Below are positions 845-34,555 of a DNA stretch of 64,000 nucleotides, piece by piece. The number at the start of each line of letters is the position of its first letter. Positions within the stretch are counted from its first letter, which is position 1. The notes beneath the pieces were generated by a model. It saw only the letters and a list, made by a program, of their open reading frames with translations. It did no database searches and was not told the DNA's origin. The position numbers and the translations under genes were made by a program. This DNA comes from Candidatus Bathyarchaeota archaeon (lineage in GTDB: Archaea; Thermoproteota; Bathyarchaeia; Bathyarchaeales; Bathycorpusculaceae), in assembly GCA_963827165.1 (NCBI GenBank), contig CAWGZR010000004.1:128001-192000 (forward strand), in the 5' to 3' direction.

Positions 845-2221
845 CTAATCTGCATCCCGTGTTTTGATAAACTTCCATGCGGGGCTGTAGATTGACTTAT
901 AAATGTCTCTTGCAAAACGTACAAAGCCTTTGAAGACCATGTAGCCGCCTTTGCTTTCGTATGTGTGCCCGTTTAAGAAAGGCACGCCATACTTGTAAGC
1001 CAAATATTTTTCTTTGGTACCGGAGATGAACAAATCTGGTTTGTATTTAACCATCATTTCTTCCAGTTCAGGCGCGTTGGGGTTATCAATTAACAGGGTT
1101 CCATTTTTTACTCGGCTCACGATTTTTTCATAGTCATCTTCATGCCCAAATGTAGTTGCGACAACGTTGAGTTCCATGCCCAGTTCCTCCATGGCTCTTG
1201 GCCAATGCCAACTGCGCGGTCCGCCCTCGTAAATCATCACTTTTTTGCCTTGCAATTTTTCTCTGTAGACATCCATCTCACATTTTATGTCTGCCATTTC
1301 TTTTGCGATGACTTCTTCGGCTTTTTGTTCCAAACCGAAGAATTTTGCAACGGTCCGCAAATCGTCAGCAGTCTGTTGCATGCCGTATAAATCCACTTCA
1401 ACGAAGGGTGTGCCATACTTTTCCTCCATCATTTTAGCTATATACATGGCTGACCGTGCGCATCTTACGACGTTTAGTTTTGCATGGTGCATTTTTGCTA
1501 TGTCGTGGATGGAAGAGTCACCTGTGAAAGTACACACTACCCGAAGTCCTATAGCTTCCAGCAGCGGCAGTATAAGCCAGTCATCTCCTCTGATGTTGTA
1601 TTCTCCGACAAGGTTTATGTCATAAGGCGTCTTGTTCTGGAGTTCTTCTGTGCCCACAACCTTGTTAAACAGAACCTCGTTACCAACGTGGTGCCCTAGA
1701 CTTTGGCTTACGCCGTGAAAGCCCGGGCAGTTGAAAGCTACCACTGGTTTTCCTATGGCGGCGGTTGCACGTTTAGCAACAGCTTCTATGTCGTCGCCTA
1801 TTAACCCGGCAACGCATGTTGAGTAAACGAATACTCCTTGTGAGTTTGGGAAAGCCTTGTTTGCTTCAAGTATGGATTCGTAGAGTTTTTTTTCTCCTCC
1901 AAAGACGATGTTTGATTCGCGCAGGTCTGTGGAGAAAACGTTGACCAGTTGAAAGTTTGTGTCTTTTGCAAGGTTTGGTCGTACGTCCCAGGGATAATAG
2001 CAGCAGCCTATGGGGCCATGTTCCAGTTGAATAACGTCTTTTACTGGTCCACCGACGACGCCTCTGCAGCCAGCGTAAGTGCAGCCTCGCTCAGTCATGT
2101 CGCCTGGGATGGTTGCTACGTTGCAGGCTGGAATGTGGCATTCGTCTTTGTCATCTTTCAGATAGCAGTGTTTTTTTCTGTCTGGCACATGCTTGTCGCA
2201 TTCTGGCAAGATAAATGGCAT
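845..2221 (-). CDS. nifD: Nitrogenase component I alpha subunit (Group III-like)
   Basis: P-cluster Cys in ERGC, HGPIGC and STC. SQSLGHH (Q191/H195), cofactor ligands CARS (C275) and NGHTY (H442), GGPR loop. Confidence 0.92.
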   Translation of the reverse strand: MPFILPECDKHVPDRKKHCYLKDDKDECHIPACNVATIPGDMTERGCTYAGCRGVVGGPVKDVIQLEHGPIGCCYYPWDVRPNLAKDTNFQLVNVFSTDLRESNIVFGGEKKLYESILEANKAFPNSQGVFVYSTCVAGLIGDDIEAVAKRATAAIGKPVVAFNCPGFHGVSQSLGHHVGNEVLFNKVVGTEELQNKTPYDINLVGEYNIRGDDWLILPLLEAIGLRVVCTFTGDSSIHDIAKMHHAKLNVVRCARSAMYIAKMMEEKYGTPFVEVDLYGMQQTADDLRTVAKFFGLEQKAEEVIAKEMADIKCEMDVYREKLQGKKVMIYEGGPRSWHWPRAMEELGMELNVVATTFGHEDDYEKIVSRVKNGTLLIDNPNAPELEEMMVKYKPDLFISGTKEKYLAYKYGVPFLNGHTYESKGGYMVFKGFVRFARDIYKSIYSPAWKFIKTRDAD

Positions 2222-2231
2222 CTACTTCACC

Positions 2232-3128
2232 TCAATCGCTGGATCGACCATAACCACTGAAATGTGTACCGCAGGTTTCCTCCCCAGGCACTCCCATGGC
2301 GTCGGCTCTGCATTGGACGCAGTTGTGAAACTGGAATAGCATGCCTTCGCACAGGTGCCGGATTCTTTGAATTTCCTGCAGAGACGGAGCTGGAATGTAG
2401 GCGAATTTAGCTTGGGGAATCAGGGGCATAATGTTCATTATGTAAGCGCCCATGTCACGTACAGTTCTGGCTACGTCAACTACATGTTCTGAGTTTACGC
2501 CTGGAATGAACACTGAGTTAACTTTGACGACTATACCTGCGTCAGCGGCGGCTCGTAATCCGTCGAGTTGATTTTTGCTAAGGATCTCGAACGCTTTTCT
2601 ACCCAAGTATGTCTTGTTTTGGTAGCGAACGAAAGAGTAAATCTGCTCACCTACCTTGGGGTCTACTGCGTTGATAGTAATTGTGAGGGCTGAAACGCCG
2701 ACCTCTTTTAGTTGGGCAAGTTTTTCTGGTAGCAGCAGCCCGTTTGTTGAAACGCAACGGGTTAAATGTGGAAACTCCTTTTTCACTTGGCGAAGAGTGT
2801 CAAATGTGACGTCGCTGCTAAGTGGGTCGCCTGGGCCAGCAATGCCTACGACACGCAGCCGAGGGTCTTTTTGCACTGCAAACCGCACTCGCTCTATCGC
2901 TTCTTCAGCCGTTATCACTTTGCTTGTAACGCCGGGACGGTTCTCGTTCGCGCAGTCGTATTTTCGAACACAATAGTTGCAGCCTATGTTACATGTTGAT
3001 ACTACGGGAAGATGTAGTCTGCCAAACTTGAAATGCGCTCCGGAACCGTAACAGGGGTGCTCTTGCACTATTTGAGAGCAAATCTTCTTGCGTATCTCTG
3101 ATTTTTCATAGCTAACCATCTTTTTCAC
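2232..3128 (-). CDS. nifB: FeMo-cofactor biosynthesis radical SAM protein NifB (short form without NifX domain)
   Basis: HPC, CNIGCNYC, ENRPG, AGPGDPL, STNG and CVQCRADA motifs. Confidence 0.93.
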   Translation of the reverse strand: MKKMVSYEKSEIRKKICSQIVQEHPCYGSGAHFKFGRLHLPVVSTCNIGCNYCVRKYDCANENRPGVTSKVITAEEAIERVRFAVQKDPRLRVVGIAGPGDPLSSDVTFDTLRQVKKEFPHLTRCVSTNGLLLPEKLAQLKEVGVSALTITINAVDPKVGEQIYSFVRYQNKTYLGRKAFEILSKNQLDGLRAAADAGIVVKVNSVFIPGVNSEHVVDVARTVRDMGAYIMNIMPLIPQAKFAYIPAPSLQEIQRIRHLCEGMLFQFHNCVQCRADAMGVPGEETCGTHFSGYGRSSD

Positions 3129-3983
<855 letters not shown>

Positions 3984-6359: not shown

Positions 6360-7919
6360 ATGAAGAAAGCAAAGACTCTGATGATTCAAGGTACAGGCAG
6401 CCAAGTTGGGAAAAGCATAATAGTTGCAGCGTTCTGCAGAATTTTCGCCAAAGATGGGTACAAGGTTGCCCCATTTAAGTCGCAGAACATGTCCCTAAAT
6501 TCCTTCGTCGCCAAAGACGGTGAAATGGCCAGAATTCAAGTTCTGCAGGCATTGGCCGCCTGCGTAGAACCCACTGTTGACATGAACCCGATCCTAGTGA
6601 AACCGAAAGAAATAGGAAAAGACATTCAGTTGATAATACACGGAAAGCCGTACTGCGATGTCGCGGTTGATGACTATTGGCAGCATGGAAAATTTGCTAC
6701 GCTGTTGACCAGAGTGATTGAGGAATCCCTTGAGCGACTCAAGTCAGAGTCCGACGTAGTAGTCATTGAAGGAGCGGGATGCCCCACAGACGATTACTTT
6801 AATGTAAGCGTTGTTAACATGAAGACGGCAGAAATAGCTGAGGCTCCTGTTTTATTGGTTGCAGATATAAACTGCGCCAGAGGAGGGGCTATGGCTTCCG
6901 TCGTAGGCATCCATGAGTTGCTCGATAAAGACGGCAGAAACAGAATCAAAGGAGTGATAATCAATAAATGGGAGGGACGAAAAGATTTTCTCAAGCCATG
7001 CTCTTCAATTATCCAAGAGAAAACTGGATGGCCCATAGTTGGAGCAATTCCTCGCATTGAAGGACTTGTCCTCCCTGATGAAGATTCAATAGGACTAATG
7101 GAAAAAACTGTCACGCACACCGGAACAAATGTCGAAATCGCCGTTATCCGTCTTCCCATGATTTCAAATTTCACGGATTTCCACCCGTTAGAAATCGAAC
7201 CAAATGTAAAAGTGAACTTTGTCGGGTCAACACGGGAATTGGGCTCACCGGATGCCATTGTCATACCTGGAACCAAGAACACTATCCAAGACTTTCTCTG
7301 GCTGAAACAGTCTGGGTTCGCAGAAAAAATCGTTGCCCTTGCAGGGAAAGGTGTTCCAGTGATAGGTGTTTGTGGCGGATTCCAGATGCTCGGTAAAGAG
7401 CTGGTGGATGAAAAGGGAATTGAAGGAGGCCTTCCCACAACTATTAGAGGGCTAGGGCTGCTCGACGTCTCAACAAAATTCGATTTCTACGGCAAGACCA
7501 CCAATCAGCTTGAGGCCGAGATAATAGGATCGGGCCATATATTTGATCAAGTGAGGGGGCAAAGGATTGTAGGTTACGAAATCCACATGGGTTCAACTGT
7601 ACTTGGCGAAAAAGCCAGTTCGATCTTTAAGGTAGTAAAGCGTGACGACAACACATTCGAGAGACTTGACGGCGCATGTGATAATGCTGGCGTTGTCTTT
7701 GGTACATATCTTCACGGTCTCTTCGATGATCCACCGCTAAGGCGGGCTTTAGTTGGGTTTCTGTCTAGAAAAAAACAGCTAAAGACAAGTTTTCACCGTG
7801 AAAAAAACATTGAGAAGATCTGGGAAGAAAATTTGGATAAGTTAGCCGAAATCGTAAGAGCAAATACAGACATGAAGAAGCTTTATGAGGTTACCGGTCT
7901 GTCGCCAGTCAAATGTTGA
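6360..7919 (+). CDS. cobQ: Cobyric acid synthase-like amidotransferase
   Basis: MIQGTGSQVGKS, APFKSQNMSLNS, MNPILVKP, ISNFTDF, GVCGGFQMLG, GYEIHMG, GTYLHG. Confidence 0.88.
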   Translation: MKKAKTLMIQGTGSQVGKSIIVAAFCRIFAKDGYKVAPFKSQNMSLNSFVAKDGEMARIQVLQALAACVEPTVDMNPILVKPKEIGKDIQLIIHGKPYCDVAVDDYWQHGKFATLLTRVIEESLERLKSESDVVVIEGAGCPTDDYFNVSVVNMKTAEIAEAPVLLVADINCARGGAMASVVGIHELLDKDGRNRIKGVIINKWEGRKDFLKPCSSIIQEKTGWPIVGAIPRIEGLVLPDEDSIGLMEKTVTHTGTNVEIAVIRLPMISNFTDFHPLEIEPNVKVNFVGSTRELGSPDAIVIPGTKNTIQDFLWLKQSGFAEKIVALAGKGVPVIGVCGGFQMLGKELVDEKGIEGGLPTTIRGLGLLDVSTKFDFYGKTTNQLEAEIIGSGHIFDQVRGQRIVGYEIHMGSTVLGEKASSIFKVVKRDDNTFERLDGACDNAGVVFGTYLHGLFDDPPLRRALVGFLSRKKQLKTSFHREKNIEKIWEENLDKLAEIVRANTDMKKLYEVTGLSPVKC

Positions 7920-8537: not shown

Positions 8538-8744
8538 TAACTATGCAAGTGTCATGCTCTTCGCAGAAAAAATAAAAAACAAACCAAGGAAACATGTTTT
8601 CATCACTGGTGAGTTGATGAAATTAGGCCAAAAATAGCGCACAAGCAAAACCGCTGCGAAGTCAAGCTTGGTAAGCCTCTTGGGTACCACACCCAAAAAG
8701 AGAAACGAACGCGGCCCAACCCTTCACGGGGGCGGAACTTGTAA

Positions 8745-8821
8745 CGGGCCCGGTAGGGATTTGAACCCACGATCTCCGGCTCCGAAGGCCGACACCTTAA
8801 TCCGTGCTAGGCTACGAGCCC
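8745..8821 (-). tRNA. tRNA-Arg(TCG)
   Basis: Reverse complement GGGCTCGTAGCCTAG...CT-TCG-GA...GGTTCAAATCC...CGGGCCCG folds as a cloverleaf. Confidence 0.93.
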
Positions 8822-11102: not shown

Positions 11103-11322
11103 TTAATGATTTCTTCGCGATCTAGGCAATTAGATGCGTATGACAATGCGGCCCTATGTCCTCTTTTTTCAAATCGGGATAGTCTTCTAATATTTCAGTT
11201 TCCGTGGCACCGTTCGCTAAGAGTTGAGTAATAAGATTAACCGTGATGCGAGTACTTTTGATGACTGGCTTGCCAACCATTATTTCAGGGTCTATAATGA
11301 TCCTGTCCATCAGCTCGTCCAT
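11103..11322 (-). pseudogene. DUF433 protein, frameshifted near the C-terminus
   Basis: RIIIDPEIMVGKPVIKSTRITV...YPDL..EDI. The expected AALSYA...EEIIK* tail continues in another frame (1-nt deletion near 11155). Confidence 0.75.
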
Positions 11323-22427: not shown

Positions 22428-23537
22428 TTATCCTCTTTTTATGTGGTATTGGTCTATTACGTCCTTGGCTTTCTCTCGTTTTTCTCTATGTGCTTCGAGG
22501 AACTTGTTGAGTTTTTCAGCTATGTCTTTTTTGCATTCGCCACAGAGCATTTCGCCGCCTCGGCATCTGCGTTCCCGCTCAGCGAGTTTGCCATGGTCTT
22601 CCTCAAAAAGGTAAAAGTAATATTGGAAAATGCTGCATACCGTTGGGTCGGCACCTTCTTTGCGCTGCTCTGCCGCAGTGCCTTTGCCTCCTGTGAACGC
22701 GTTCCAAATCTTCTTCTTGACGACGTCAGGCGGATCTATTGTGAAGATGCTGGTTTCAGGCATAGATGCACTCATTTTTCCTCCAGCGCCTAACCCAGGA
22801 AGGAAGCGGCAATGGATCTGTGCGGGTTTGTAGTAGCCGAGTTTTTGCGCTATGTCTCGGGTTACTCGCCAGTAGGGGTCTTGGTCGATTGCTGCTGGGA
22901 TGAGTGCTGGGACGTTTTCGCCTGTGAGTTTTTTGTGGATAAAGCAGGGGGCGGCTTGGATAGCGGGCCACATGACCCAGCCGATGTTGGTGCTGTCTTG
23001 GAAGCCGAAGCTGCTGCGTGCCGTGCTGTAAGTAATGCGTTTAGCCACTTCAAGTGTGATGTCGTAGAGCAAGTCGATGTCTTTGGTGTCGTAAATGATA
23101 AATGTGTTTTCAGGTTTGAAGCCGAGGGCGATTAGGTCCAAGGCGTTTTCGTAAGCAAACTTGCTTGTTTCTTTTAGGCTGGCGTCGTCGCCTATGAGGA
23201 ATTTTTCGTCGTCGGTCATTTGGAAATAGAGTCGCGTGTTGAATTTCTGCTGGATATGAAGCGTGAAAATCCACGGGACAAGGTGTCCGATGTGGACGGG
23301 TCCTGAAGGTCCTCTTCCTGTGTAGAGGACGAATTTGATGCCTCTGTCGTAGAGGTCAAGCACGACGTCGAGGTCGCGGTGGCTGAAGAAAATTTGTCTT
23401 TCAAGTTGCAGATGCAGCTTGTCAGTGTGCTTCTCGACTCTGGCGAGCAATTCGGGGGTGATTGGTTGCGTGCCGAACTCACGGATCAGTCGGTCATAGT
23501 CTACTTTGCCTTTTACTTCCCACGGAGTAACAACCAT
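22428..23537 (-). CDS. trpS: Tryptophanyl-tRNA synthetase (archaeal/eukaryotic type)
   Basis: VTPWEV, YTGRGPSG.VHIGH, AIDQDPY, KMSAS. Confidence 0.97.
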   Translation of the reverse strand: MVVTPWEVKGKVDYDRLIREFGTQPITPELLARVEKHTDKLHLQLERQIFFSHRDLDVVLDLYDRGIKFVLYTGRGPSGPVHIGHLVPWIFTLHIQQKFNTRLYFQMTDDEKFLIGDDASLKETSKFAYENALDLIALGFKPENTFIIYDTKDIDLLYDITLEVAKRITYSTARSSFGFQDSTNIGWVMWPAIQAAPCFIHKKLTGENVPALIPAAIDQDPYWRVTRDIAQKLGYYKPAQIHCRFLPGLGAGGKMSASMPETSIFTIDPPDVVKKKIWNAFTGGKGTAAEQRKEGADPTVCSIFQYYFYLFEEDHGKLAERERRCRGGEMLCGECKKDIAEKLNKFLEAHREKREKAKDVIDQYHIKRG

Positions 23538-23720
23538 TTCATTGTTGTTTTCTGCTGCGTTAGATGAAGCCGTCTTAATTCACCAGGACCTTTCCAAAAA
23601 CAGTGGCGCCTAAGTCATATATGCTTTTTCCGCAGAGCGTGGCTCCTCAGGATTAGGAAGTGTCAAAAAGTTTCCCGAAAGAGCGGGGTTTTTTCTTTTT
23701 AATACACAGTTTTGGCAGTG

Positions 23721-23825
23721 GACGGTAAAGGACGCTAGAGGACGGCTGTGGACTTTAAAGGACGGTAAAGAACGGTAAAGGACTTTAGTAGACGGTAAAG
23801 GACGGTAATGGACTTTAAAGGACGG
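23721..23825 (+). repeat. Tandem array of ~10.5 x 10 bp (consensus GACGGTAAAG)
   Basis: Visible units include gacggtaaag, gacgctagag and gactttaaag. Confidence 0.9.
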
Positions 23826-23957
23826 ATGCTGCAGATGATTCAAGCTTTTCCACAAGAAAGTAACTTAAAACACAAAGGAAAAAAAATAAAACTTTCCTTC
23901 TCTCACCACCCTTTGTGCAGCGTAAAAGCCTTAAGCCGTGATGTGCATCCAAGTTTG

Positions 23958-24020
23958 GGATGATGAGCACTAGAGTCACTGAGCCTATGCGGTGATATTG
24001 ACTCGACGGGCGAACTGACT
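23958..24020 (+). ncRNA. C/D-box guide sRNA
   Basis: Box C ATGATGA (23960), D' CTGA (23979), C'-like GTGATA (23992), box D CTGA (24015), ~60 nt, upstream TATA-like CTTAAG. Confidence 0.75.
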
Positions 24021-24036
24021 AAAACCGTTATCATAG

Positions 24037-24834
24037 ATGAAGCGGAGAATGGTGGAAAACGGCAAAATCGATTTGATCATGTGGACTTACAACAGCGCCA
24101 AGCTTCTGCCAACAGTGTTGCAACGAATTAACGAAGTTATACCCATCGAATTGGTTAATAGAAGAATCATAAGCGACGATCACAGCACTGATCAAACCGT
24201 TGAAATCTCCTGGAAGCTGGGCTGGGAAGTTCACGTTAACAAGGGTATGGGGCTACAGGACAACAAGCAGAACGCTCTTAGCCTCGTTTCGACGCCTGTA
24301 TTCGCTTGTTTTGAGCATGATGTCCTTTTGAGCCGAGACTGGTGGCGCAAAGCCTCCGAAATCATGAGGGATCCGCATGTAGGCGTCGTTCAGGGTATCC
24401 GGCTCTCCACCGAACCTAGACTACGCAAGTTGGATTCCTACGAGTATGCGAGAAGAAGCGACAAACGCAGCGTAGACAACAACCTATGCAGAACCGATGT
24501 AGTGCGGAAATTTGGTTTCGACGAATCAGGCAGCCCTGGAAGAATGAGACAAGACGGTTTTAGGTGGGCAGTCATGTGCGACGTCGTCTCCGACCACATA
24601 ACAAGAGCCAATCTGGTCGAAACCGTCCAGCATGACATGAGAATTCACATGCTTTCGCTGCCGAGCTACACAATAAGCGAGAAAGTTGGCTGCTTCAAGA
24701 TTTTCGTACACAGCCCCATCCGAGCTTTAGATGTCGTCCGAAAAACTCGAACCTACTCCATGCTAATCTTCTATCCCATTGATAGGCTAGCCATTTTCTT
24801 CGCTTATTTCACGAGAGACCGAAAAATAGAGTAA
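24037..24834 (+). CDS. Glycosyltransferase family 2
   Basis: TYNS, DDHSTDQT, EHD (DxD-like). Confidence 0.8.
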   Translation: MKRRMVENGKIDLIMWTYNSAKLLPTVLQRINEVIPIELVNRRIISDDHSTDQTVEISWKLGWEVHVNKGMGLQDNKQNALSLVSTPVFACFEHDVLLSRDWWRKASEIMRDPHVGVVQGIRLSTEPRLRKLDSYEYARRSDKRSVDNNLCRTDVVRKFGFDESGSPGRMRQDGFRWAVMCDVVSDHITRANLVETVQHDMRIHMLSLPSYTISEKVGCFKIFVHSPIRALDVVRKTRTYSMLIFYPIDRLAIFFAYFTRDRKIE

Positions 24835-24964
24835 ATCAGAATCGTTTTCATGGCTTTTCGGGGGCTGTTATCTTGTTGGGAGCGGAAAACTTATCTGTGA
24901 AGCAACTGTGAAGTGCATGATTAAACTCAAGCTTTAGGCGCACATAATCGAGGTGAATTGAAAA

Positions 24965-25264
24965 ATGGTTGAAACCAAAACTGTTGAGATGAAGGTTGAC
25001 GCATCAGAACTTAAAGGCGAAAAGCAAGACTTGATTTCGAAGCTCGCAGATTTCTTGAAGGAAAAAACAGGCGGCGAAGTATCTACAGCATCTGAGATGG
25101 TGACGATTAAGGGTCAAGGAGAAGCCCTGAGCAAGAAGTACATTCGAATAACGGTAAAGAAGTTCCTGCACAGACACGAGCTTACTGAGAGGTTTAGAGT
25201 AATCGGCGGCGAAGAAAACCTCCTGAAAGTAAAACAAAGAATAACGGGAGAAGAAGAGGACTAA
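24965..25264 (+). CDS. rpl22e: Ribosomal protein eL22 (L22e)
   Basis: LADFLKEK...LSKKYIRITVKKFLHRHELTERFRVI with an acidic tail, matching the eL22 SKRYLKYLTKKYL..LRDWLRV pattern. Confidence 0.8.
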   Translation: MVETKTVEMKVDASELKGEKQDLISKLADFLKEKTGGEVSTASEMVTIKGQGEALSKKYIRITVKKFLHRHELTERFRVIGGEENLLKVKQRITGEEED

Positions 25265-25420
25265 GCCACCTTCCCTTTTAAACAAATACAAATTTAATTT
25301 TTCTTGTCTAAAAAACGTTCAGTGTCAACTTTGTCCTACTATCTGAACACCCTGTTCTAATGCGTAGGATTAAATCAAAAAACGCCCTCTTAGCCATTAC
25401 AGCAGGCAAGGGAACAGAAC

Positions 25421-25597
25421 GTGAGCCACAAAACAATCGCGGTAAGCACAATAATCATTATTTCACTCGTAACCTTGACCGCACTTTTCATAGAAAGCTC
25501 CGCGGCGCTACAAAGCATAAACCCAGTAGCCGTATTGGCAGCGGCGACCGTCATCGTAATCGGTTTGGCTTGGTTCAAAAAAGCAAACAAATCCTAA
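25421..25597 (+). CDS. Small two-TM membrane protein (58 aa)
   Basis: GTG-start ORF MSHKTIAVSTIIIISLVTL...VIGLAWFKKANKS; below the ORF-track length cutoff. Confidence 0.5.
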   Translation: MSHKTIAVSTIIIISLVTLTALFIESSAALQSINPVAVLAAATVIVIGLAWFKKANKS

Positions 25598-25705
25598 AGA
25601 AAGAAGACCGGGTGCCTGCATTTCAGGATATTTTTGAAAGCTCACGTTTAGTCACAGCCATGAGAGCCCTAAGTCGAAATGTTTACTAAAAATGGTTAAA
25701 AACGG

Positions 25706-27901
25706 CTATTTGATTTTTAACTTCTTATAGATATAGGAAAATACTTTTTCGCCTTCCGCAACAGGTTCCTTGAACCTGACAGAAACCTCGGCTGCTGAAA
25801 GTGAAGCCCTGATTTCCCCTGCAACTCCTGATGCGGTAACAACTTTTGTTCCTACGAATTTGGAAGCAGCTTCCGAGGTGCTAAATAGACCCTTCACGGA
25901 ATATTCGTTGGCTTCTCTTTTTTGTTTTACAGTTCCTTCTTTGGTCTTTTTTGAGAAGAATTCTAATTTGCTGTTTGTTTCAGTAATTCTTCCGCCGCCG
26001 ATTATTCGAAATTCGCGGGCTTGGAGTCCAGGGTTCATCAAGAGGACTTGGTCGCCTCTTTCCGCCACGACTTGTTGTCTGAGTTCAATGTAAACTAAAC
26101 ATTTTTCAGAAGCCTTCACTGAGGTCTTCACAACGAACTTGCCTTCTTCCATGACCCCGGGCACGACGTTTCCCAGCACCTCATAAGAACCGACAAACAC
26201 GTCTACATCGCTATAGGGCGTCAACGTACGCAGATAGTATTTGTCCACTTCTAATTCGATTATTACACGGTGGGTAGAGCTTATGGAGCCTGGAGAAACT
26301 GCTACGTAACCCCTGTGAGCGTCATCAGGTTTTACGTCTTTGACGGCAACGCCCACCCTGTCTCCAGCGATAGCTTCCTCCTTGTCCTCACCGAATGACC
26401 GCAGTGAACGCACCTGACCTTTTTTGTCGATGGGTTTGATTTCAATGATATCTTTAACCTTTACTTTCCCGCGGTGTATCGTCCCTGTTAAAACAGTTCC
26501 CACTCCGACTATGGTGAATGCGTGGTCTATGGGCATCTTGAATGGACCATTCCATTGGCGAATAGGCGGACTGATAGACTCCTGTAGTGCACTTTTGAGT
26601 TCATCAATTCCTTTGCCCGTTAATCCTGAGACCTCCACGATCTTTGCGTTCTCATATGGAGTTCCTTTGAGAAGAACTGTGACTTTCTTCTTGACTTCCT
26701 CAATTCGCTCTGGAGAAGCCAAATCGACCTTGTTTATAGCAACTACAAGATTCTTTATTCCAACGTCTTTAATTATTGAGAAATGCTCCACGCTCTGAAC
26801 CTGGAGGCCGAGATCGGCGGCCACAACCAGCACAGCAGCATCAATTATGTTAGCACCCGCCACTGCATGCCTAACCAAACTGAAGTGTCCCGGCAAGTCA
26901 ACTAGAGTAGCGAGATAGGGACCTAACGTGAAAGCGGAGAAGCCCATATCCAATGTCATTCCCCGCCTGGCGGAGTCTGGTGCCTTATCCAGAGCTGCTG
27001 TCGAAGGTTTTTCAGTTAGCTGCCGGGCAAGCATTGTTTTGCCGTGGTCAACATGCCCGAACAGACCAACATGAACGGGAATGAGCCCCTTGCCCTCAGT
27101 CATAGCGTAACTTTTTGCGACTACATTGGCTTCTCTTAGGAATAATTCAACCGCGTCCACAGGCTTCGAACCGTCTTCAAGAGCCTTCTTCACCACTTCT
27201 TTTCTGATTCTTGAAAGAGAAATGCCCAAGTCCGGATTCTTGTATCGCGTCATAACCTCCATCATGGACTTTCTGGTTTCCCTTTCGATGCCTCTTGCTC
27301 TTAGTGACTTCTCGTTTTCCACAACTTTTCTGGGCTTGGACCTGATCGGTTGTTCAAGTCTCTTGAGAACTGCGGTAACAATGAGGCTTGCAATCTCTTC
27401 GATGCTTTGCTTACTTGGGTCGACAACAACAAGGGGAGTGTCCCATTTGTAATCGCCTTTTGGCGCGTCAAGTTTCTGATTGATTTCCTCAATGAGCGAT
27501 AATGGAATCGGCGATCCGCGTTCTTGATTCCATGCAATGGCTTGTTCAACGGGAGTGTCAACAAAAACTATGTCATAGTCAGAGCATAACCGTTTGGCAA
27601 TCTGCCTAAGCTCGCTCCTCATCGACTTGTAGTAGTTTAGGTCATCGCTAATTACGAGAAAACCATTCTCCAAACCGGTTGCAATAGCTTTCTCATAAAG
27701 AGTCTTGACAGATGCTTCCCGTTCAGGTTTGAATCCTTTGGAGCTATACGAGAGCATGTCCCGAAAATCGTCAGAGCTGACCACCATGGTTGAAACGTCA
27801 TGTTTGTCCTCGAGCAAGGAGGCGACGTTTTTGCAGATGGTTGTCTTTCCTGAAGAAGGCAATCCGCATAGTATAAGCAGGTAAGGAACGCTCTGTGACA
27901 C
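25706..27901 (-). CDS. selB: Fusion of L-seryl-tRNA(Sec) kinase (PSTK) and Sec-specific elongation factor SelB
   Basis: N-terminus: GLPSSGKT, DDLNYYKSMR, WDTP. C-terminus: GHVDHGKT, STAALDK, RGMTLDMGFS, DLPGH, NKVD, DHAF, RIIGGG, and an archaeal/eEFSec-like domain IV. Confidence 0.92.
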   Translation of the reverse strand: MSQSVPYLLILCGLPSSGKTTICKNVASLLEDKHDVSTMVVSSDDFRDMLSYSSKGFKPEREASVKTLYEKAIATGLENGFLVISDDLNYYKSMRSELRQIAKRLCSDYDIVFVDTPVEQAIAWNQERGSPIPLSLIEEINQKLDAPKGDYKWDTPLVVVDPSKQSIEEIASLIVTAVLKRLEQPIRSKPRKVVENEKSLRARGIERETRKSMMEVMTRYKNPDLGISLSRIRKEVVKKALEDGSKPVDAVELFLREANVVAKSYAMTEGKGLIPVHVGLFGHVDHGKTMLARQLTEKPSTAALDKAPDSARRGMTLDMGFSAFTLGPYLATLVDLPGHFSLVRHAVAGANIIDAAVLVVAADLGLQVQSVEHFSIIKDVGIKNLVVAINKVDLASPERIEEVKKKVTVLLKGTPYENAKIVEVSGLTGKGIDELKSALQESISPPIRQWNGPFKMPIDHAFTIVGVGTVLTGTIHRGKVKVKDIIEIKPIDKKGQVRSLRSFGEDKEEAIAGDRVGVAVKDVKPDDAHRGYVAVSPGSISSTHRVIIELEVDKYYLRTLTPYSDVDVFVGSYEVLGNVVPGVMEEGKFVVKTSVKASEKCLVYIELRQQVVAERGDQVLLMNPGLQAREFRIIGGGRITETNSKLEFFSKKTKEGTVKQKREANEYSVKGLFSTSEAASKFVGTKVVTASGVAGEIRASLSAAEVSVRFKEPVAEGEKVFSYIYKKLKIK

Positions 27902-28138
27902 CGTTTTCCCCTATTGTCTATCCCGTCTGGGTTTATAATGGTGTCGAACATTAGACTTTGATCATTAATTCCATAATATCATGTTGGATTTAACTCCAAG
28001 ATCCCCAAACTACCAATTTATATACGGGGAAAGACAACTCGGGAACTATACAGGAAAACCAGAAAATGTTCTCGAAGCAAGGAAACATTTCTTCTTATCT
28101 AAGGGTTGTTCTTGCCGACGGCACCAGAGGTATGTTTC

Positions 28139-29452
28139 ATGTTACCGTTTGATAAGTTAAAAGATACTATCCCAAAGAGCATACTTGAGAGAGGCCTAAC
28201 AGTGTTAGGCACAGAGTCACAGCCGATAAAACTGCTTTTCGAGCAAAGAAGAATACCCCAAGAAGGCTGGAAAGACAGCCAAATCGAAGAATTCCTGAAT
28301 TTGCTGTCTACAATGGATTCGGACAAGGACAGTAAAGCAGTTTTTGTAGGCGAAAGAGAAGGCAGGGTTGCATCCCCAGCAGTTTCAAAGCTGGCAAGTG
28401 GATTTCACCACGGGATAGGAAGGTCAGGTGACTTGACTGAAGCCCAGCCTAAGGCGGCAGGTGGATCTCTCATGTATTATTTTGCTAACAAATTAGCAAA
28501 TGACGCCATGAAAAGGTTCGGACTCCCAAACATCAAAAAGACAGTGGTCTTTCCTGTGGCAACGGGAATGACGCTTGCTCTTGTCTTATGCGCCGCAAGA
28601 AACCACGCCATGGGAAGAGAGGTGGTTTACCCACAGATTGACCATAAGACCCCTTTGAAGGCAATTCATCTTGCCGGTCTTCAAGAGAAAATAGTTAAAG
28701 GAGAAGTCGATGGAGACGCAGTAAACGTTTCCACTGAAGAGATAGAAAAAGCAGTTAATGAAAATACAGCTGCGATCCTTTCAACAACCACCTTCTTTTC
28801 ACCCAGAGAACCAGATAAAATCAAAGATATTGCAAAGATCGCAGAGAAGAAAAAAGTCCCACATATTATAAACAACTCCTTCGGAGTGCAGAGCCGCGAG
28901 ATCATGAAACTCATAAGAGGCGCAGTCGACGCAGGACGTGTGGACGCAATAATCCAAAGCACCGATAAGAATTTCCTAACCCCAGTAGGAGGAGCAATAG
29001 TCGCTTCACCCAACGAAGAATTCTTAGACGAAATATCTGAAACCTATGCAGGGAGGGCAACAGCCGCTCCCGTAGTGCAATTCCTAGCAGCTGCACTGTC
29101 GATAGGATTAGAAGGCTACGAGAAACTGAGAACCCAGCAAGAAGAAAACAAGAAGTTCCTTGAATCATCCTTGAAAGAGGTTGCAGAAAGGCATTCGCAG
29201 CGTATTCTCAACGTTTACAATCCAATATCGGTGGCTATGACACTGGAGGGAAGAAACGCCAAAAAAATAGGTCAAGCCCTCTATACGGCAAGGGTTAACG
29301 GAGCAAGAGCTTTAGAAAAAAATGATTTCGGAGTATGCTGCCCAGAATACATCTCATCTTACATCAACTTCGACGCCAGCATAGGAATACAAAAAAACGA
29401 AATCACTCTAGCAACAGAGAGGTTAGACACCGTTTTGAAGACTGCGTCGTAG
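28139..29452 (+). CDS. spcS: O-phosphoseryl-tRNA(Sec) selenium transferase (SepSecS)
   Basis: MDSD, GEREGRV, HGIGRSGDL..AQPKAAG, ATGM, QSTDKNF (PLP lysine), YAGRA. Confidence 0.95.
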   Translation: MLPFDKLKDTIPKSILERGLTVLGTESQPIKLLFEQRRIPQEGWKDSQIEEFLNLLSTMDSDKDSKAVFVGEREGRVASPAVSKLASGFHHGIGRSGDLTEAQPKAAGGSLMYYFANKLANDAMKRFGLPNIKKTVVFPVATGMTLALVLCAARNHAMGREVVYPQIDHKTPLKAIHLAGLQEKIVKGEVDGDAVNVSTEEIEKAVNENTAAILSTTTFFSPREPDKIKDIAKIAEKKKVPHIINNSFGVQSREIMKLIRGAVDAGRVDAIIQSTDKNFLTPVGGAIVASPNEEFLDEISETYAGRATAAPVVQFLAAALSIGLEGYEKLRTQQEENKKFLESSLKEVAERHSQRILNVYNPISVAMTLEGRNAKKIGQALYTARVNGARALEKNDFGVCCPEYISSYINFDASIGIQKNEITLATERLDTVLKTAS

Positions 29453-29542
29453 TGGCGGCGTCCAAGGGGAATCGGACCCCGAGACCTTGCGGGCTCACCG
29501 GATTTGAAGTCCGATGCTAGGACCACCTAGCCGTGGGACGCC
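29453..29542 (-). tRNA. selC: tRNA-Sec(TCA)
   Basis: 9-bp acceptor stem (one mismatch), 6-bp D stem GCTAGG/CCTAGC, CT-TCA-AA loop, long variable arm, 4-bp T stem, G73 and encoded CCA. Confidence 0.95.
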
Positions 29543-29725
29543 CTCAACGATGTTCGACAGTTGAATAATTTGTCTCGAAGCGCGATTTCTGTATTCACTC
29601 GGCAAAATAAACATATTCCGCCCTGAACACCCTAGACTAAGCTTGTGCAACATGCATTTTGACGTATCTTTCCGAGTTTTCATCTTGTTTTTGACAATGA
29701 CATATTCAAACGCCCATGTCTTTTA

Positions 29726-30244
29726 GTGAACTTGAAGCAATTTTCCATCATTTTATTAAGCTACAGCCACAATGTTCTTGCGGGACGGATTAGCTTGGCT
29801 ATTTTGTTTAAAGTCTCAAAATACGTTGTGGCTCTTTTAGTGGCAGGTGGGCTCGCGTGGCTTATTGCAGGATTGTTCTTTGGAGGATCGGTTGCGATCT
29901 CTTATTTTTCAAGTGGTTCTCTCGCGAACGCAGGCATCGCGACTCCTGGCTATCCAGCCGGTGCTGTGCGCCAACTTGCTTGGGACCAATTTTATATCAA
30001 CCTTTATTCCGCAGTAATCGGGTTGTTCGCAATCATCATTGGTCTCACCGCGTTCAGACAAGGGGAAAAATGGGCGTGGTATGCAATATTGGTCCTTGTC
30101 CTAAACGGGTTGATTACAAGCGTCTTTGATTATTTGAGCTGGGGAGGTTGGTACACTGTATTCGCTACTTCTTTACCGATGCTTCTTGCTTTGTTGTTTT
30201 CTGCCAAGAGCTTCTTCTCAGCTGCACGCCAAACGTTAAATTGA
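29726..30244 (+). CDS. Hypothetical four-TM membrane protein
   Basis: Hydrophobic helices and AFRQGEKWAW. Start position uncertain. Confidence 0.65.
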   Translation: MNLKQFSIILLSYSHNVLAGRISLAILFKVSKYVVALLVAGGLAWLIAGLFFGGSVAISYFSSGSLANAGIATPGYPAGAVRQLAWDQFYINLYSAVIGLFAIIIGLTAFRQGEKWAWYAILVLVLNGLITSVFDYLSWGGWYTVFATSLPMLLALLFSAKSFFSAARQTLN

Positions 30245-30355
30245 TTGACGGGTTAATTACGAATTTAGTGAGCATACTGTGTGCTCCCAGGCAAATAGCA
30301 AGCGCCAGCATCATAACCTCGCCTAACGGTAAAGGCTAAGGAACAAATTCTTTTG

Positions 30356-32863
30356 TTACTTCGCCGGTGCTTTGTCGGCGGGTTTAGCTGCAGGAGCTGA
30401 GGCTGCCGCTTTGCGTTTTAGCATGTTCTCTAAAGTTGGACGAAGCTTGGCGTTTTCGGCCAGTATCTTTTCTTTTCCCAGTTCCTTAAGTTGGCCGCTC
30501 ATTTCCTTGACTATATTGACAAATTTCTCTCCTTCAGCCGACGAAACATAGTCAACCCTTAGTCTTTCCGGGCTCAATCCAAGCTTCTGAAGCATTCCAC
30601 CCAAAGCATCCATGCGCACTTTCATCCTAACGTTTCCAGAGATATAGTGGCAGTCGCTGGGAAGATGACAAGCGGTAATCAACACGCCTCCGACTCCCAG
30701 CCTAAACGCTTCCATAACAAAGTCCCGATCTACCCTCCCAGTGCACATTACCCGTATCGCCCTTGTAGTAGGAGGGTATTCCAGCCGGCTCGTCCCCGCT
30801 CGGTCCGCGCCGGCATAACCTCACCAATTACACATAAACGTCAGTATCTTGTCCTCAGGATCCCTTTCCAGAGCAGCTCTGATTTGCGAGGTTATTTGCT
30901 CATCCGTAAAATGCATCTGAGTTATAGCATCTTGTGGGCATTCAGCAACGCATGTTCCGCACCCATGGCACTGGGCTGCATTAATCTGAGCTGGTTTCCC
31001 CTCAACTGCAGTTATGGCACCAAATGGACAGCTTTTCACGCACACCCCGCATCTTGCTTTTACGTTTCTGCATTTTGCGATGTCAACTATCGAGACTATC
31101 GGTTCTATCGTCCATTTGGGTTGAGAAAGGATCGTTGCCGCCCTTGCTGCCGCACCGCTTCCTTGGGCAACGCTATAGGGTATGTCTTTTGGTCCCTGGC
31201 AAGCACCCGCCAAGAATACTCCGTCCATAGGTGTGTCCATTGGTTTGAGTTTTGGGTGACTCTCCATGAAGAACCCGTCTGATCCTCTCGTTATATGGAG
31301 GATGCCAGCCAATTCTTCGGCTCCCTTGCTGGGTATAGCCGCCGTGCTTAGAACGGCCATCTCCACTTCGACTTCGATGGGCTGCCCCAGCGTCGAGTCC
31401 TCTGCTCGGATAACCAAGTTTTTGGTCTTTGGGTCTTCCAGTATTTGAGATGGCTTTCCCCTGACAAAGATAACGCCCATTTCACGGGCTCTTCGATAGA
31501 ATTCTTCATAACCTTTGGAGGGAGTTCGTATATCAATGTAGAAGATGTAGACTTCCACTTCATTATGGTAGTGTTCTTTCAGAAGGATGGCCTCTTTGAG
31601 CCCGTACATGCAACAGAAACCTGAACAGTATTCGTACTTGTTTACATCCCTTGAACCGACGCATTGAATTATAGCGACGCTCTTCGGTCTTTTTCCATCG
31701 GATGACCGGATTACATGTCCACTTGTTGGGCCGCCCGCTGTGATGAGTCTCTCAAACTCCAAAGCCGTAATTACGTTATCGTATTTTCCGTAGCCGTACC
31801 TTGCATCCTCATATGGTAGATAAATGTCACAGCCCGATGCTACTACGATTGCCCCAACTTCTAAGTCAACTTCTTCTGGCTTTTGGTTAAAGTTAATGGC
31901 TTCACGAGCGCCGCAGGCGTCCACGCATTTGAAGCACTCTATGCAGTAATCCATGTTAATCGAGTAGATGAGAGGCACTGCTTGATCGAACGGAATGGAG
32001 ATGGCTTTTCTTACGCCTAAGTTCATATCCCATTCATTGGGGTATTCTATTGGGCAGGCGTCTTTGCATTCTCCGCAACCCGTGCATTTTTCGGCCATAA
32101 CATATCTCGGGTTCTTGCGAACTTTAACTCTGAAATTGCCTACAAAACCCTCCACCTTGAGGATGTCCGCATTGGTTATTACTTGGACCTTAGGATGGCG
32201 CAATACTTCCACCATCCTAGGTCCTTCAATTCATATGCTGCAATCCAAAGTTGGAAAAGTCTTGTCGAGCTGCGCCATGTGTCCGCCTATGCTCGCGTTC
32301 TTCTCGACAAGGTATACCTCGAACCCCATATTCGCCAAATCCAAAGCAGAGTTGATACCGGCAATACCGCCGCCGATAACCAAGGCGTTTTTGGTTACAG
32401 GGACCTCCATGGTTTCAAGGGGCTTGAGCAACCTCGCCTTGGCAACGGCCATCCTTATAGTATCTTTTGCTTTTGCTGTGGCTTCTTTAGGATCATTGGG
32501 ATGGCACCATGAAGCGAACTCACGTATGTTCGCCATTTCAAACACATAAGGATTTAGTCCTGCTTCACTTACAGTTTTTCGAAATGTTGGCTCATGCATC
32601 CTTGGGCTGCAAGCAGCCACGACAACACGGTTTAATTTGTGTTCTTTTATGGCTTTTCTGATTTCTTCTTGTCCCGGGTCAGCGCAAGTGTAGCGGTTTT
32701 CTTTAACATAGACTACGTCAGGTATGGTTTTTGCGTACTCGGCGACTGAGGGTACGTCCACTGTGCCTGCGATGTTCATACCGCAGTGGCAGACAAAAAC
32801 GCCGATCCGCAGTTCTTCTGGTTTTTGAGTTTCAGGTTGTTTTTTGGCTTCTGGATTGCTCAT
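30356..32863 (-). CDS. hdrA: Selenoprotein HdrA-MvhD fusion (~835 aa, Sec at UGA 32231-32233 and 30821-30823)
   Basis: Three ORF-track pieces share one frame and are joined by TGA: [23 protein letters not shown] and [18 protein letters not shown]. HdrA motifs CHCG, ACSP, GGGIAG, QCVGSRD, CSGFCC. MvhD motif RVMCTGRVD. Confidence 0.92.
30784..30814 (-). other. In-frame hairpin 6 nt 3' of UGA no. 2 (candidate SECIS/SRE)
   Basis: GCCGGC/GCCGGC stem, CG/CG, tandem GA/GA, CC/GG. Confidence 0.5.
32185..32224 (-). other. In-frame hairpin 6 nt 3' of UGA no. 1 (candidate SECIS/SRE)
   Basis: GGACCU-AGGAUGG-UG pairs with CG-CCAUCCU-(A)-AGGUCC: 15 bp with one bulge. Confidence 0.6.
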
Positions 32864-33792
32864 TTCACTATCTCCTCAAAGTTGAGTCTTTTGGAAACTG
32901 CTTTGCGCCTGTTCTCGCCGGCTCGAGCTTTCAACTCTTTAACAGCATCAATGTGTGATGTTAATCTTTCTAATGATTTGTTCCAAGCACCCGAATGAAT
33001 GGGCGTATGACGCACTGCTGTGCGCTTAACCTTTAATGCTTCATCGATGGGGCAAATATTTTTGCACGCGCCACAGTAGGTACAGAACAAATCGTTAACA
33101 TGAACCTTCTTGTCGCTGAGCGTTAGCGCTCCTGGAATCGGGCAGACGTCAAAGCAATCGGTGCAACCCTCGGGACATTTCTCCTGAGCGATGGCGATTA
33201 CTCCTTCAAAGGCTTTTTTGACCTTTATCGCGCCTGGACTGCATTTGAACTCGCATACTCTGCAAGTTGGGCAGTAATCCTTCTTGATGTCGAGGCTAAC
33301 CTGAATGCGTGCTTTGAAGCTAGGGGAAGAATCCGCAATGTTTTCGACGGGTTTGCCGTCAAAACCAACTTTCGACACTGTTATCAACCCGAATGGACAG
33401 GCGGCTTCGCATTCAACACATTCTTTAGGGCACTTGGAGTTATCCACTTTTATGTCCCGAACCAGCTGAGGGTAGCTGTCTTTCGCCAAGACAGAGAGGT
33501 CATGATTCCCATTTAAAGTAACCTTGATGGCGCCGTAGGGGCATGTGACGTCGCATATTCCGCAGAAATTACATTTAGCCAAATCAACATCAACTTTGGC
33601 TTTTTTAGTTTTTTCTCCGGCGTTCTTTGGCTGTTTTTGCGTTGTTATTGCCTCTTTAGGGCAGGCCAACATGCAAATTTGGCAGCCGACGCACCGTTTC
33701 TTGTCGAGAGTTAACTTGTAATTCTTAACTTGTAAATCCCACTCTAATGTTAAGGCATCTGCCGCATCCTTCTTTATGGTTTTAAACGGCAT
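32860..33792 (-). CDS. Polyferredoxin (FwdF-like)
   Basis: Six CxxCxxCxxxCP-type motifs and C-terminal HTPIHSGAW. Overlaps the hdrA start (ATGA). Confidence 0.85.
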
Positions 33793-34170
33793 ATCTTTCC
33801 ACCAAGGGCTCTCCAAGCCGCCGAACAGAACACCAATGGCGGCTAACAGTTTAATTGGTAGGACTTAAAGTGCTTTTGATATAAATATTGCTTGAACAAA
33901 AACGTGCTTTCTACCATCAAAAACACCGGAAAAGAGTTTGTTTAGCTGACGGAATAGGTTTTAGATTTTATGTGTTTGTTTTTGAATCTTTGTACCCTTG
34001 TCCAACCTTTCCGCGCCCTATCTAAACCCAGTTTAAGCCATAAACCAGAAAATAGCCTAAAGTTCAGAAAAACTTCTGCGGCTGAAATTGTGAAGGCTCC
34101 TCTAGCTATGTCCTCGGTTGGCTTTCTTTGACGCCTATCTGATTTGATGAGCGTTGCCTTTTTTGGCCTT

Positions 34171-34250
34171 TTATACCATATTATAGAGCATAAAATAGCA
34201 TAAGATAGCATATTTCAGCGTATTATAGCATATTATAGCATGCAGTAGCA
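34171..34250 (+). repeat. Tandem array of ~8 x 10 bp (consensus TATTATAGCA)
   Basis: taaaatagca taagatagca tatttcagcg tattatagca tattatagca. Confidence 0.8.
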
Positions 34251-34360
34251 ACCAAAACAAGCCCCATTTCATAAAAGCAACTCAAAACACAAACGGAAAA
34301 TTTTCTCTTCCCAAAAAAGCGGGTCCACAGCGCTCAAATCTGCGATTCTATTTATAGACT

Positions 34361-34410
34361 ATTTGATACGTTTCAATACGTTTCGATACGTTTTGGTATG
34401 TTTTGAGATT
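34361..34410 (+). repeat. Tandem array of ~4-5 x 10 bp (consensus TTTCGATACG)
   Basis: atttgatacg tttcaatacg tttcgatacg ttttggtatg. Confidence 0.75.
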
Positions 34411-34555
34411 ATGGTTTCAAGTATTTCAAGCCCCAAACCAAAAAAACAGCTCAAAACACAAAGAAAAAAAAATTAGAGGAAAATTTATTTTGTTTAAGGA
34501 CACAAACAAAGAAAAGATAAAGAGCTAGCTCAGCTTACCCCAAGAGTTGTCAGAG

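Follow-up and report, generated by a model that had tools for sequence, protein, structure and literature searches.

A probable selenocysteine-decoding module with a PSTK-SelB fusion beside a two-UGA hdrA-mvhD gene in a Bathyarchaeon

Introduction

Does a short stretch of a Bathyarchaeal genome hold what is needed to read UGA as selenocysteine (Sec), and if so, for which gene, by which signal in the mRNA and through which line of inheritance? The question is raised by a gene cluster that spans ~8 kb (positions 25706-33792) of a 64,000-nucleotide stretch of DNA from a Candidatus Bathyarchaeota archaeon, the whole of which is called the window below, and that comprises a PSTK-SelB fusion gene, SepSecS, tRNA-Sec and an operon encoding a polyferredoxin and an HdrA-MvhD fusion protein. 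Judged by homology, this locus is very probably a working-looking Sec module of the archaeal/eukaryotic type that belongs to Bathyarchaeia and lies beside the one gene that it seemingly serves, and that is of a published kind and, in this family, seemingly inherited vertically and often lost.

Sec use in this part of the archaeal tree has been described before. Mukai et al. (2017) reported it for the AK8/W8A-19 group of Crenarchaeota, with SPS, HdrA, VhuD and VhuU as the selenoproteins (PMC5424206), and a PSTK-aSelB fusion together with a Bathyarchaeota Sec gene cluster appears in section 3.4.1 and the legend to Fig. 9 of Mukai et al. (Front Genet 2022; PMC8762117) and again in sections 5 and 23 of a review (PMC9499178). 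The preliminary description of the locus, a reading of the letters alone, had seen in it a new extension of Sec decoding to a TACK lineage; going by these parts of the three sources, that extension was reported in 2017 and 2022, and a Bathyarchaeota Sec cluster with the PSTK-SelB fusion is a known system since 2022. The locus thus leaves the map of Sec use unchanged, and the lineage is under-appreciated and under-cited rather than new: the available portion of a prokaryotic selenoproteome review of May 2026 names only Methanococcales, Methanopyrales and Asgard archaea, with Bathyarchaeota unmentioned in that portion (PMC13188914).

Results

The two UGA codons of hdrA-mvhD

The window corresponds to positions 128001-192000 of contig C4 (275 kb) of genome G000, a metagenome-type assembly of 3.13 Mb in 14 contigs with an estimated completeness of 94.5% and contamination of 3.92%. 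Homology was assessed with Pfam models, NCBIfam models at their curated cut-offs and Rfam models at their gathering scores, and tRNA genes with ARAGORN. Relatives were drawn from a genus sample of 120 species genomes including G000, 73 of them of high quality, and from a class sample of 401 genomes in 131 genera, and independent sequence came from Logan contigs of public runs. All the parts that had been named, a compact archaeal/eukaryotic-type Sec module and an adjoining target gene with two UGAs, were recovered at or close to where the preliminary description had placed them (Table 1). Its end point at 33792 is the ATG of the polyferredoxin gene, but this is a separate gene without a UGA that lies upstream of hdrA.

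Table 1. Positions of the features discussed. Coordinates are those of the window unless a contig (C) or locus (L) is named.
Feature	Coordinates	Strand	Basis
PSTK-SelB fusion, one 731-aa open reading frame without stops	25706-27901	-	Pfam, NCBIfam
SepSecS, O-phosphoseryl-tRNA(Sec) selenium transferase	28106-29452	+	TIGR03531, Pfam
tRNA-Sec, anticodon UCA	29457-29542, discriminator G at 29456	-	ARAGORN, Rfam RF01852
Open reading frame, 172 aa, between tRNA-Sec and hdrA-mvhD	29726-30244	+	list of open reading frames
Conserved element abutting the hdrA-mvhD stop codon, candidate selenocysteine insertion sequence (SECIS)	30316-30355	-	alignment of 11 operon ends
Predicted HdrA-MvhD fusion selenoprotein gene, 835 codons, HdrA2-like	30356-32863	-	translation with TGA = U
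UGA codon 2, U681, motif CNWUGYAG, MvhD domain	30821-30823	-	aligns with second Cys of MvhD CNWC
UGA codon 1, U211, motif DCSIUIEG	32231-32233	-	aligns with Cys197 of HdrA 5odc_A
Polyferredoxin, first gene of the operon	32860-33792	-	multiple 4Fe-4S dicluster domains (Pfam)
Promoter-like block, TATA-like core, ~65-90 nt upstream of the polyferredoxin ATG	33873-33903	-	conservation
selD	C3:248992-249867		232.6 bits, cut-off 125
serS	C5:411040-412296		521.8 bits, cut-off 301.65
TrpRS	22428-23537
Diverging tRNA-Sec homolog (G051)	L045 ~154-244		alignment
Diverging tRNA-Sec homolog (G235)	L131 ~11198-11288		alignment
Diverging tRNA-Sec homolog (G340)	L132 ~194-284		alignment
Copies of a genome-wide repeat	23712-23883; 34156-34300; 34340-34469	+
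Nitrogenase alpha-subunit-like protein	845-2221	-	TIGR01862, 595 bits, cut-off 486
Neighbours of the nitrogenase-like gene	2232-3128; 3129-3947	-

The HdrA-MvhD translation, with C in place of U, scored 1083.9 bits against the HdrA2 model NF040770 over positions 1-775 of its 777; the protein also matched PDB chain 5odc_A at E 4.7e-252 and MvhD chains at E 1e-38 down to 2e-25, and a family search of the genome returned it as the only HdrA. Both in-frame UGAs fall on positions where homologs have cysteine (Cys). The first corresponds to HdrA Cys197, a residue that helps to bind an iron-sulfur cluster close to the bifurcating flavin, and the second matches the second Cys of CNWC in the MvhD chains 7bkb_F, 9sw2_D and 5odc_D; the homolog of a Sec-negative relative, G003, carries Cys at both sites.

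Eight other genomes (G083, G131, G108, G079, G105, G352, G467 and, in its upstream copy, G349) have both TGAs at the same codons, each within an identical context of 17 residues, and protein identity across and past them is 81-94%. The second TGA is also kept in G087, the contig of which ends within the gene, and is visible in a frame read of G109, where hdrA aligns as three pieces in different frames. Among the contigs of public runs, one of X2 (2709 nt; from another study than X1) covers 29239-31927 including codon 2 with a single difference, located elsewhere, and one of X3 covers 32228-32576 including codon 1 without a difference. TGC or TGT at both sites, which the preliminary description had named as fatal to its proposal, did not appear in these contigs: of the differences listed, beyond which there were 84 more, none falls on either TGA. 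The in-frame UGAs are therefore not a product of chance, because the same codons in identical contexts recur in eight other genomes and in independent contigs of two other studies, and two predicted Sec residues replace conserved cysteines of HdrA and MvhD. RNA-library contigs of X16 matched parts of SepSecS, hdrA and polyferredoxin; DNA carry-over is possible, and these were not counted as expression.

That the TGAs are instead true stops, with hdrA-mvhD decayed in three pieces or the Sec machinery a relic, would fit the three hdrA pieces of G109, the partly degenerate candidate element 3′ of the gene in the window and the lack of any SECIS recognised by RNAalifold or Rfam, but it sits badly with the retention of both TGAs in eight other genomes at 81-94% protein identity downstream, with their alignment to essential conserved cysteines, with the standing of this HdrA as the only one of the genome and with the intactness of every machinery reading frame, and we regard it as extremely unlikely.

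The gene order of the operon is conserved as well. The polyferredoxin (a FwdF-like NCBIfam match of 155 bits, under the cut-off) has no in-frame UGA, its stop overlaps the hdrA start (ATGA), and in relatives it is 62-81% identical and keeps its position. The block upstream of it was near-invariant in 10 of 10 aligned upstream regions, in surroundings that were not conserved, and probably acts as a promoter. Since this invariant TATA-like block lies upstream of polyferredoxin, hdrA-mvhD probably comes second on a bicistronic mRNA.

The Sec machinery

In the PSTK-SelB protein, residues 1 to ~245 matched the PSTK/KTI12 family of P-loop kinases and the remainder an archaeal-type Sec elongation factor. 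The Pfam scores were 122 bits for KTI12 (cut-off 22; residues 8-219) and 113 bits for GTP_EFTU (residues 277-443), with GTP_EFTU_D2, aSelB_III and eEFSec_4th as further domains, and the NCBIfam selB model TIGR00475 scored 275 bits against a cut-off of 242.25, over model positions 2-338 of 581 only. The SelB half is thus of the archaeal type, with domains I-IV and without the bacterial winged-helix tail. At least 120 protein-database sequences, 41-100% identical, were related to the fusion; in the 120 listed, GTP_EFTU was present throughout, KTI12 accompanied it in 118, the length lay between 683 and 740 aa in 114, and several bear the annotation selenocysteine-specific elongation factor. The P-loop G..GK and the GTPase motifs were invariant in an alignment of 13 sequences. 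A contig of X1 spans the PSTK/SelB junction (27030-27597) with 0 differences. The union of PSTK and SelB in one reading frame is real, because this contig crosses the junction and because KTI12 and GTP_EFTU co-occur in the listed relatives. A first draw of relatives covered 36 further species of the genus, none of which had the fusion; outside the genus it was whole in G051, and G048 gave a PSTK-only match on a short contig.

SepSecS was identified by TIGR03531 (488.6 bits, cut-off 224.85) and by the Pfam SepSecS model (388 bits), and among the control genomes the SepSecS model was positive in M. jannaschii only. The tRNA-Sec gene, for which ARAGORN called the anticodon TCA, scored 64.5 bits with Rfam RF01852 against a gathering score of 47. 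In the Rfam alignment its acceptor and T stems measure 9 and 4 bp and form a 13-bp (9/4) domain, and its D arm has a 6-bp stem and a 4-nt loop. The eighth acceptor pair is a C:U mismatch in the window and U:U in six of 16 aligned relatives.

Two further observations concern this tRNA. G083 (L039) carries two tRNA-Sec genes ~1 kb apart, at 7687-7773 and 8726-8812, which are 100% and 95.4% identical to that of the window. In three Bathyarchaeia of other families (Table 1), a tRNA-Sec homolog aligns as far as the T loop and then diverges, with no ARAGORN call, which may reflect a T-arm intron or a misalignment; the consulted sections of the review report a T-arm intron in tRNA-Sec for Lokiarchaeota (PMC9499178).

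The rest of the pathway is encoded elsewhere in the genome. The preliminary description had noted that SelD and SerRS were missing from the window, and had held that absence of selD from the genome would refute it; both genes lie on other contigs of G000, selD on C3 and serS on C5. SelD is of the Cys type, with the motif HGCSCK and no in-frame stop. G000 also encodes SepRS (477.1 bits, cut-off 380.65) and SepCysS (553.5 bits, cut-off 365.25), in adjacent genes on C11. It is conceivable from these that the UGAs are read by way of tRNA-Sec but receive Cys, with SepCysS acting on O-phosphoseryl-tRNA(Sec) (Sep-tRNA(Sec)) instead of or alongside SepSecS, and archaeal SepCysS can, according to the cited part of one paper, accept Sep-tRNA(Sec) in vivo, a cross-talk that the paper goes on to discuss (PMC8762117). 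An intact SepSecS and SelD are nonetheless conserved alongside, the fusion has been proposed as a guard against just such cross-talk, and Sec-negative relatives simply encode Cys, as read in G003; Cys insertion appears very unlikely to us.

The 172-aa reading frame between tRNA-Sec and hdrA-mvhD had no Pfam or NCBIfam match, looks hydrophobic by eye and is common to G131 only (83% identity), and it was excluded from the Sec system.

The locus in its host genome

The tetranucleotide distance of the cassette to the genome fell between the 7th and the 52nd percentile of C4 windows, C4 itself being typical of the genome. TrpRS, encoded 2 kb to the left of the cluster, shares 87-94% identity with the TrpRS of 13 other species in the genus, eight with and five without SepSecS. 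The named nearest homologs of TrpRS (83-86% identity) and PSTK-SelB (82-88%) are assigned to 'Candidatus Bathyarchaeota/Bathyarchaeia archaeon' and also to 'Nitrososphaerota' and 'Crenarchaeota archaeon', names that bear out the proposed Bathyarchaeal host. The cluster and its flanking genes are common to seven other species of the genus (G109, G083, G131, G087, G108, G079 and G105), and contigs of two other studies tile the region, bridging SelB, SepSecS, tRNA-Sec and hdrA.

A chimeric contig, or one of Asgard or methanogen origin, had been named in advance as an outcome that would overturn the proposal, and was set aside because the composition is native, TrpRS is genus-like and the same cluster occurs in other species. 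The suspicion that the contig is chimeric or mis-binned, with the cluster coming from an Asgard archaeon or a methanogen, draws on the metagenome-type assembly in 14 contigs with 3.92% contamination; set against it are the 275 kb of C4 with a composition typical of the genome, a TrpRS 2 kb away at 87-94% identity to the genus, the occurrence of SepSecS in nine other species of the genus, one of them a single-contig genome of 3.05 Mb, and of the same cluster in seven, and the independent contigs that bridge SelB to hdrA, and we give it almost no credence.

SepSecS was present in 10 of the 120 genus species genomes, G000 included (6 of the 73 of high quality), and in 13 of the 401 genomes sampled from the class, belonging to 6 of the 131 genera and to four families. 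The same two genera also hold a Sec system of another and more distant type, in G098 (L037) and G337 (L129), where SepSecS is 68-73% identical and tRNA-Sec adjacent to it. Within 20 kb around SepSecS at these two loci no PSTK-SelB or hdrA was found; in G098, a single contig of 3.05 Mb, a more distant fusion (P0079, 54% identical) apparently lies elsewhere in the genome.

Sec-type and Cys-type isoforms and the inheritance of the cluster

The HdrA(-MvhD) proteins of the Sec-negative G003, G008, G014, G030 and G013 are 67-73% identical to that of the window, and Sec-type HdrA-MvhD is 81-94% identical to it even across genera. In a maximum-likelihood HdrA-MvhD tree, which left out G013 (partial contig), G109 (gene broken) and G087 (gene truncated), the five full-length Cys-type rows grouped together (support 100/100, branch length 0.43) and all nine Sec-type rows stood apart; because the branch to the outgroup G051 is very long, the root is unsure. 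G349 (L128; G349:C9, 10978-16321) holds both types in tandem, a Sec copy with both TGAs upstream and a Cys copy, 68% identical to HdrA-MvhD of the window, downstream, with the conserved 3′ element after the second copy only. The TrpRS tree resolves too little within the genus, with 2 of its 14 inner branches supported, and whether the Sec-positive species form a clade is undecidable from it.

The preliminary description had called the cluster a potentially transferable cassette. This does not agree with its native composition, with an identity that roughly tracks TrpRS across genera and families, with flanks common to the Sec-positive relatives or with the lack of any mobility gene (integrase or transposase) in Pfam and NCBIfam scans of the cluster. 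Recent horizontal acquisition of a mobile cassette would account for the patchy spread given above, for the packing of all parts but selD and serS into 8 kb, for a synteny with the Sec-negative G003 and G013 that holds as far as TrpRS and then breaks, for SepSecS identities to the window that are about the same in the sister genus g26 (81-88.5% in 3 of 4 genomes) as in its own genus (81-89%), and for the three repeat copies that flank the cluster region in G000. Yet cassette and TrpRS identities move in step, at ~86-94% versus 89-94% within the genus and 81-91% versus 85-88% in g26, and farther out, in other families, at 37-55% versus 68% in f6 and 42-59% versus 61% in f29; the flanking CBS, orf99 and GT2 genes are common to Sec-positive relatives; the repeats are not kept at the cluster flanks in relatives; and the HdrA proteins of Sec type and Cys type represent two lineages of old standing, which differential loss explains. 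Recent transfer is, on balance, unlikely. Vertical descent with differential loss, the Cys isoform being kept instead in the losers, looks the better fit, because Sec and Cys HdrA-MvhD form two lineages, G349 carries them in tandem, and cassette identity keeps roughly in step with TrpRS.

The recoding signal

In 11 of 11 Sec-type operon ends, ~35 nt directly 3′ of the hdrA-mvhD stop were conserved, the stop itself being UAA or UAG and never UGA; the core profile of this element had no match in the 3′ flanks of four of four Cys-type genes. A model of three small hairpins, hand-drawn from these same sequences, all of them close relatives, paired 82.8% of cells as against 25-54% when the partners were slid, and among 500 shuffles one reached its pairing percentage and ten its covariation score. 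The element was taken as a weak candidate for a SECIS. As a single sequence, the 3′ region of the window folded no better than shuffles (z -0.15). The sequence profile of the core found no second copy in G000 above noise, and in g26 it matched the right places weakly (E 0.086 and 0.45), with noise of similar size elsewhere.

The selenoproteome of the genome

No second selenoprotein gene was found in G000 by a partial survey that combined family searches with a de novo scan. No further in-frame TGA was seen in its HdrA, AhpC-TSA and NiFe hydrogenase large subunit families, none of its three [NiFe] hydrogenase large subunits has an in-frame stop, the FlpD/MvhD family has an in-frame TGA only in the HdrA-MvhD domain of the window, and a family search detected no molybdopterin enzymes. 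The genes of AhpC and thioredoxin type look ordinary; a lone TGA within a thioredoxin match was rejected as a Sec codon, as it marks a gene boundary. The de novo scan, by a dicodon score, gave 150 candidates, of which the top 20 were inspected and rejected: most are same-frame neighbour genes with a start a few codons past the TGA, and two resemble frames antisense to paralogs. A self-BLAST with 5357 read-through candidates gave too much noise to be of use.

G000 also contains many families of short paralogous open reading frames, for example at C3:67566, C3:171520 and C12:129824, where one copy has an in-frame TGA opposite Trp, or some other residue, in a copy 60-94% identical to it; these look like decaying repeated genes rather than recoding.

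Other features of the window

The repeat copies near the cluster (Table 1) belong to a genome-wide family. Each consists of 8-11 tandem units of exactly 10 bp, the unit differing by copy (for instance GGACGGTAAA versus TAGCATATTA-like), followed by a conserved tail of ~70 nt with an A-rich run at its end. When up to 2 substitutions are allowed, a 15-nt core motif is found 111 times across the 3.13 Mb, and 40 of these sites have strong 10-bp periodicity upstream. The family might provide phased binding sites, encode a small RNA or mark a recombination site. Many metagenome contigs break at 34426, where depth rises. Contig joints from 23825 to 34425 and from 23838 to 34258 were considered as a form without the 10.5-kb region and rejected, as their sides measure 21-34 nt and lie in the genome-wide repeat, copies of which stand at both places.

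Far from the cluster, the window encodes a nitrogenase alpha-subunit-like protein, for which the nifD, vnfD and nifE models scored below their cut-offs, next to two reading frames on the same strand. A nitrogenase-family gene in a Bathyarchaeon may merit its own look.

Discussion

By analogy with the known pathway, the parts would work together as follows. SerRS, encoded elsewhere, would charge tRNA-Sec with serine; the PSTK half of the fusion would phosphorylate Ser-tRNA(Sec); SepSecS would turn Sep-tRNA(Sec) into Sec-tRNA(Sec) with selenophosphate from the Cys-type SelD; and the SelB half of the same fusion would bring Sec-tRNA(Sec) to both UGAs of the HdrA-MvhD mRNA. The product is predicted to be the flavin and iron-sulfur core of an electron-bifurcating complex of the heterodisulfide-reductase type, probably co-transcribed with polyferredoxin from the conserved promoter. 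Mukai et al. (2022) propose, in the part cited, that in organisms lacking SepCysE the fusion shields Sep-tRNA(Sec) from SepCysS (PMC8762117); the fusion may likewise keep Sep-tRNA(Sec) away from SepCysS here, because G000 also has SepRS and SepCysS.

Several observations weigh against reading the locus in this way, most of them to do with the recoding signal. RNAalifold found no consensus structure in the 11 3′ sequences (-0.44 kcal/mol), and the Rfam SECIS models, the eukaryotic ones included, had no match at E up to 10. A drawing of the methanococcal SECIS type was rejected, with 69.9% of cells paired, 60.5% in the lower helix and 66 of 500 shuffles as good. A GAG/GAA, CCG-loop-CGG shape can be drawn in most relatives, but in the window, unlike in most of them, the small 3-bp CCG/CGG helix of the element is broken. 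The Loki type (AUGA, 9-bp stem, GA) was rejected as well, AUGA being present in 3 of 11 3′ regions and, by eye, without a complementary strand. G349 has the element after its Cys copy, ~2.8 kb past the stop of the Sec copy. As for the proteins, the NCBIfam PSTK model TIGR03574 gives the fusion 141.4 bits against a cut-off of 290.5, and the HdrA2 score of 1083.9 falls just under its cut-off of 1100; the selenoprotein survey covered G000 in part, and the genome is 94.5% complete. The 3′ element is called a candidate only, because the hairpin model was drawn from the same close relatives, RNAalifold and Rfam gave null results, a helix is broken in the window and the element is so placed in G349.

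One reading joins all of these threads, though we consider it less likely than not: a Sec apparatus devoted to one gene, a recoding element of a new kind at the stop of that gene, with neither the GAA/A core of methanococci nor the AUGA-GA core of Lokiarchaeota and eukaryotes, and an ancestral tandem pair of Sec and Cys hdrA-mvhD, as G349 still has, of which either was kept, so that descendants would retain the Sec type together with its machinery or just the Cys type.

Four points were not found in the cited parts of the literature: that one selenoprotein gene alone was found, that the spread is patchy, that two isoform lineages exist, and that no known SECIS model matches, with the conserved 3′ element as a weak candidate. 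With a single target gene whose two UGAs lie 1.4 kb apart, one 3′ end and a fusion of kinase and elongation factor, the locus is a compact natural test bed, suited to the question of how archaeal SelB locates its mRNA, described as open in the cited part of the Lokiarchaeota paper (PMC4989117). It could also serve to test channelling of Sep-tRNA(Sec) by the fusion away from SepCysS, and the presence of a Sec-type and a Cys-type HdrA-MvhD lineage in the same genus offers a natural contrast for what Sec adds to this enzyme.

Comparison with known systems

The closest counterpart is the Bathyarchaeota system as described in the cited sections of PMC8762117. There as here, PSTK and aSelB form one reading frame, the machinery is clustered with a Sec-using gene, SepRS and SepCysS co-occur, and the eighth acceptor pair of tRNA-Sec is mismatched; that paper reports U6:U67, and six of the relatives aligned here have U:U, whereas the tRNA-Sec of the window has C:U.

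PSTK, SepSecS, SelD, aSelB and a tRNA-Sec of the 9/4 fold are shared with Methanococcales and Methanopyrus, where HdrA and VhuD/MvhD are selenoproteins too, according to the excerpts of PMC4989117 and PMC13188914. In those methanogens PSTK and SelB are separate proteins, whereas here they are fused, and SelD, the [NiFe] hydrogenase subunits and formate dehydrogenase are non-selenoproteins or absent here. The methanococcal SECIS as given in the cited part of PMC4989117 (a ~10-bp GC-rich stem, an asymmetric GAA/A bulge, 3 GC pairs and an apical loop, situated in a UTR) was not found at this locus, and the D stem of tRNA-Sec has 6 bp as against 7 bp in most archaea, by the cited sections of PMC9499178.

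With Lokiarchaeota and other Asgard archaea, as presented in the consulted part of Mariotti et al. (2016; PMC4989117), the locus has in common HdrA and VhuD as multi-Sec targets, one 3′ end serving ~2 kb, an hdrA stop of UAA or UAG, and a tRNA and enzymes of the archaeal/eukaryotic type. Unlike them, it lacks, by eye, AUGA, the 9-bp stem, the A-rich 11-nt loop and the GA motif, its HdrA is fused to MvhD and its PSTK to SelB, and the selenoproteome, as far as surveyed, is much smaller.

As an enzyme, the target gene product differs from Methanosarcina-type HdrA2 and the solved Hdr-Mvh complexes (5odc, 7bkb, 8rvu) in the two predicted replacements of Cys by Sec, in its polyferredoxin partner, in a host not shown to be a methanogen and in a score just under the model cut-off, but it resembles them in having a full-length HdrA (E 4.7e-252) followed by MvhD (E ~1e-38), in the same domain order as in NF040770.

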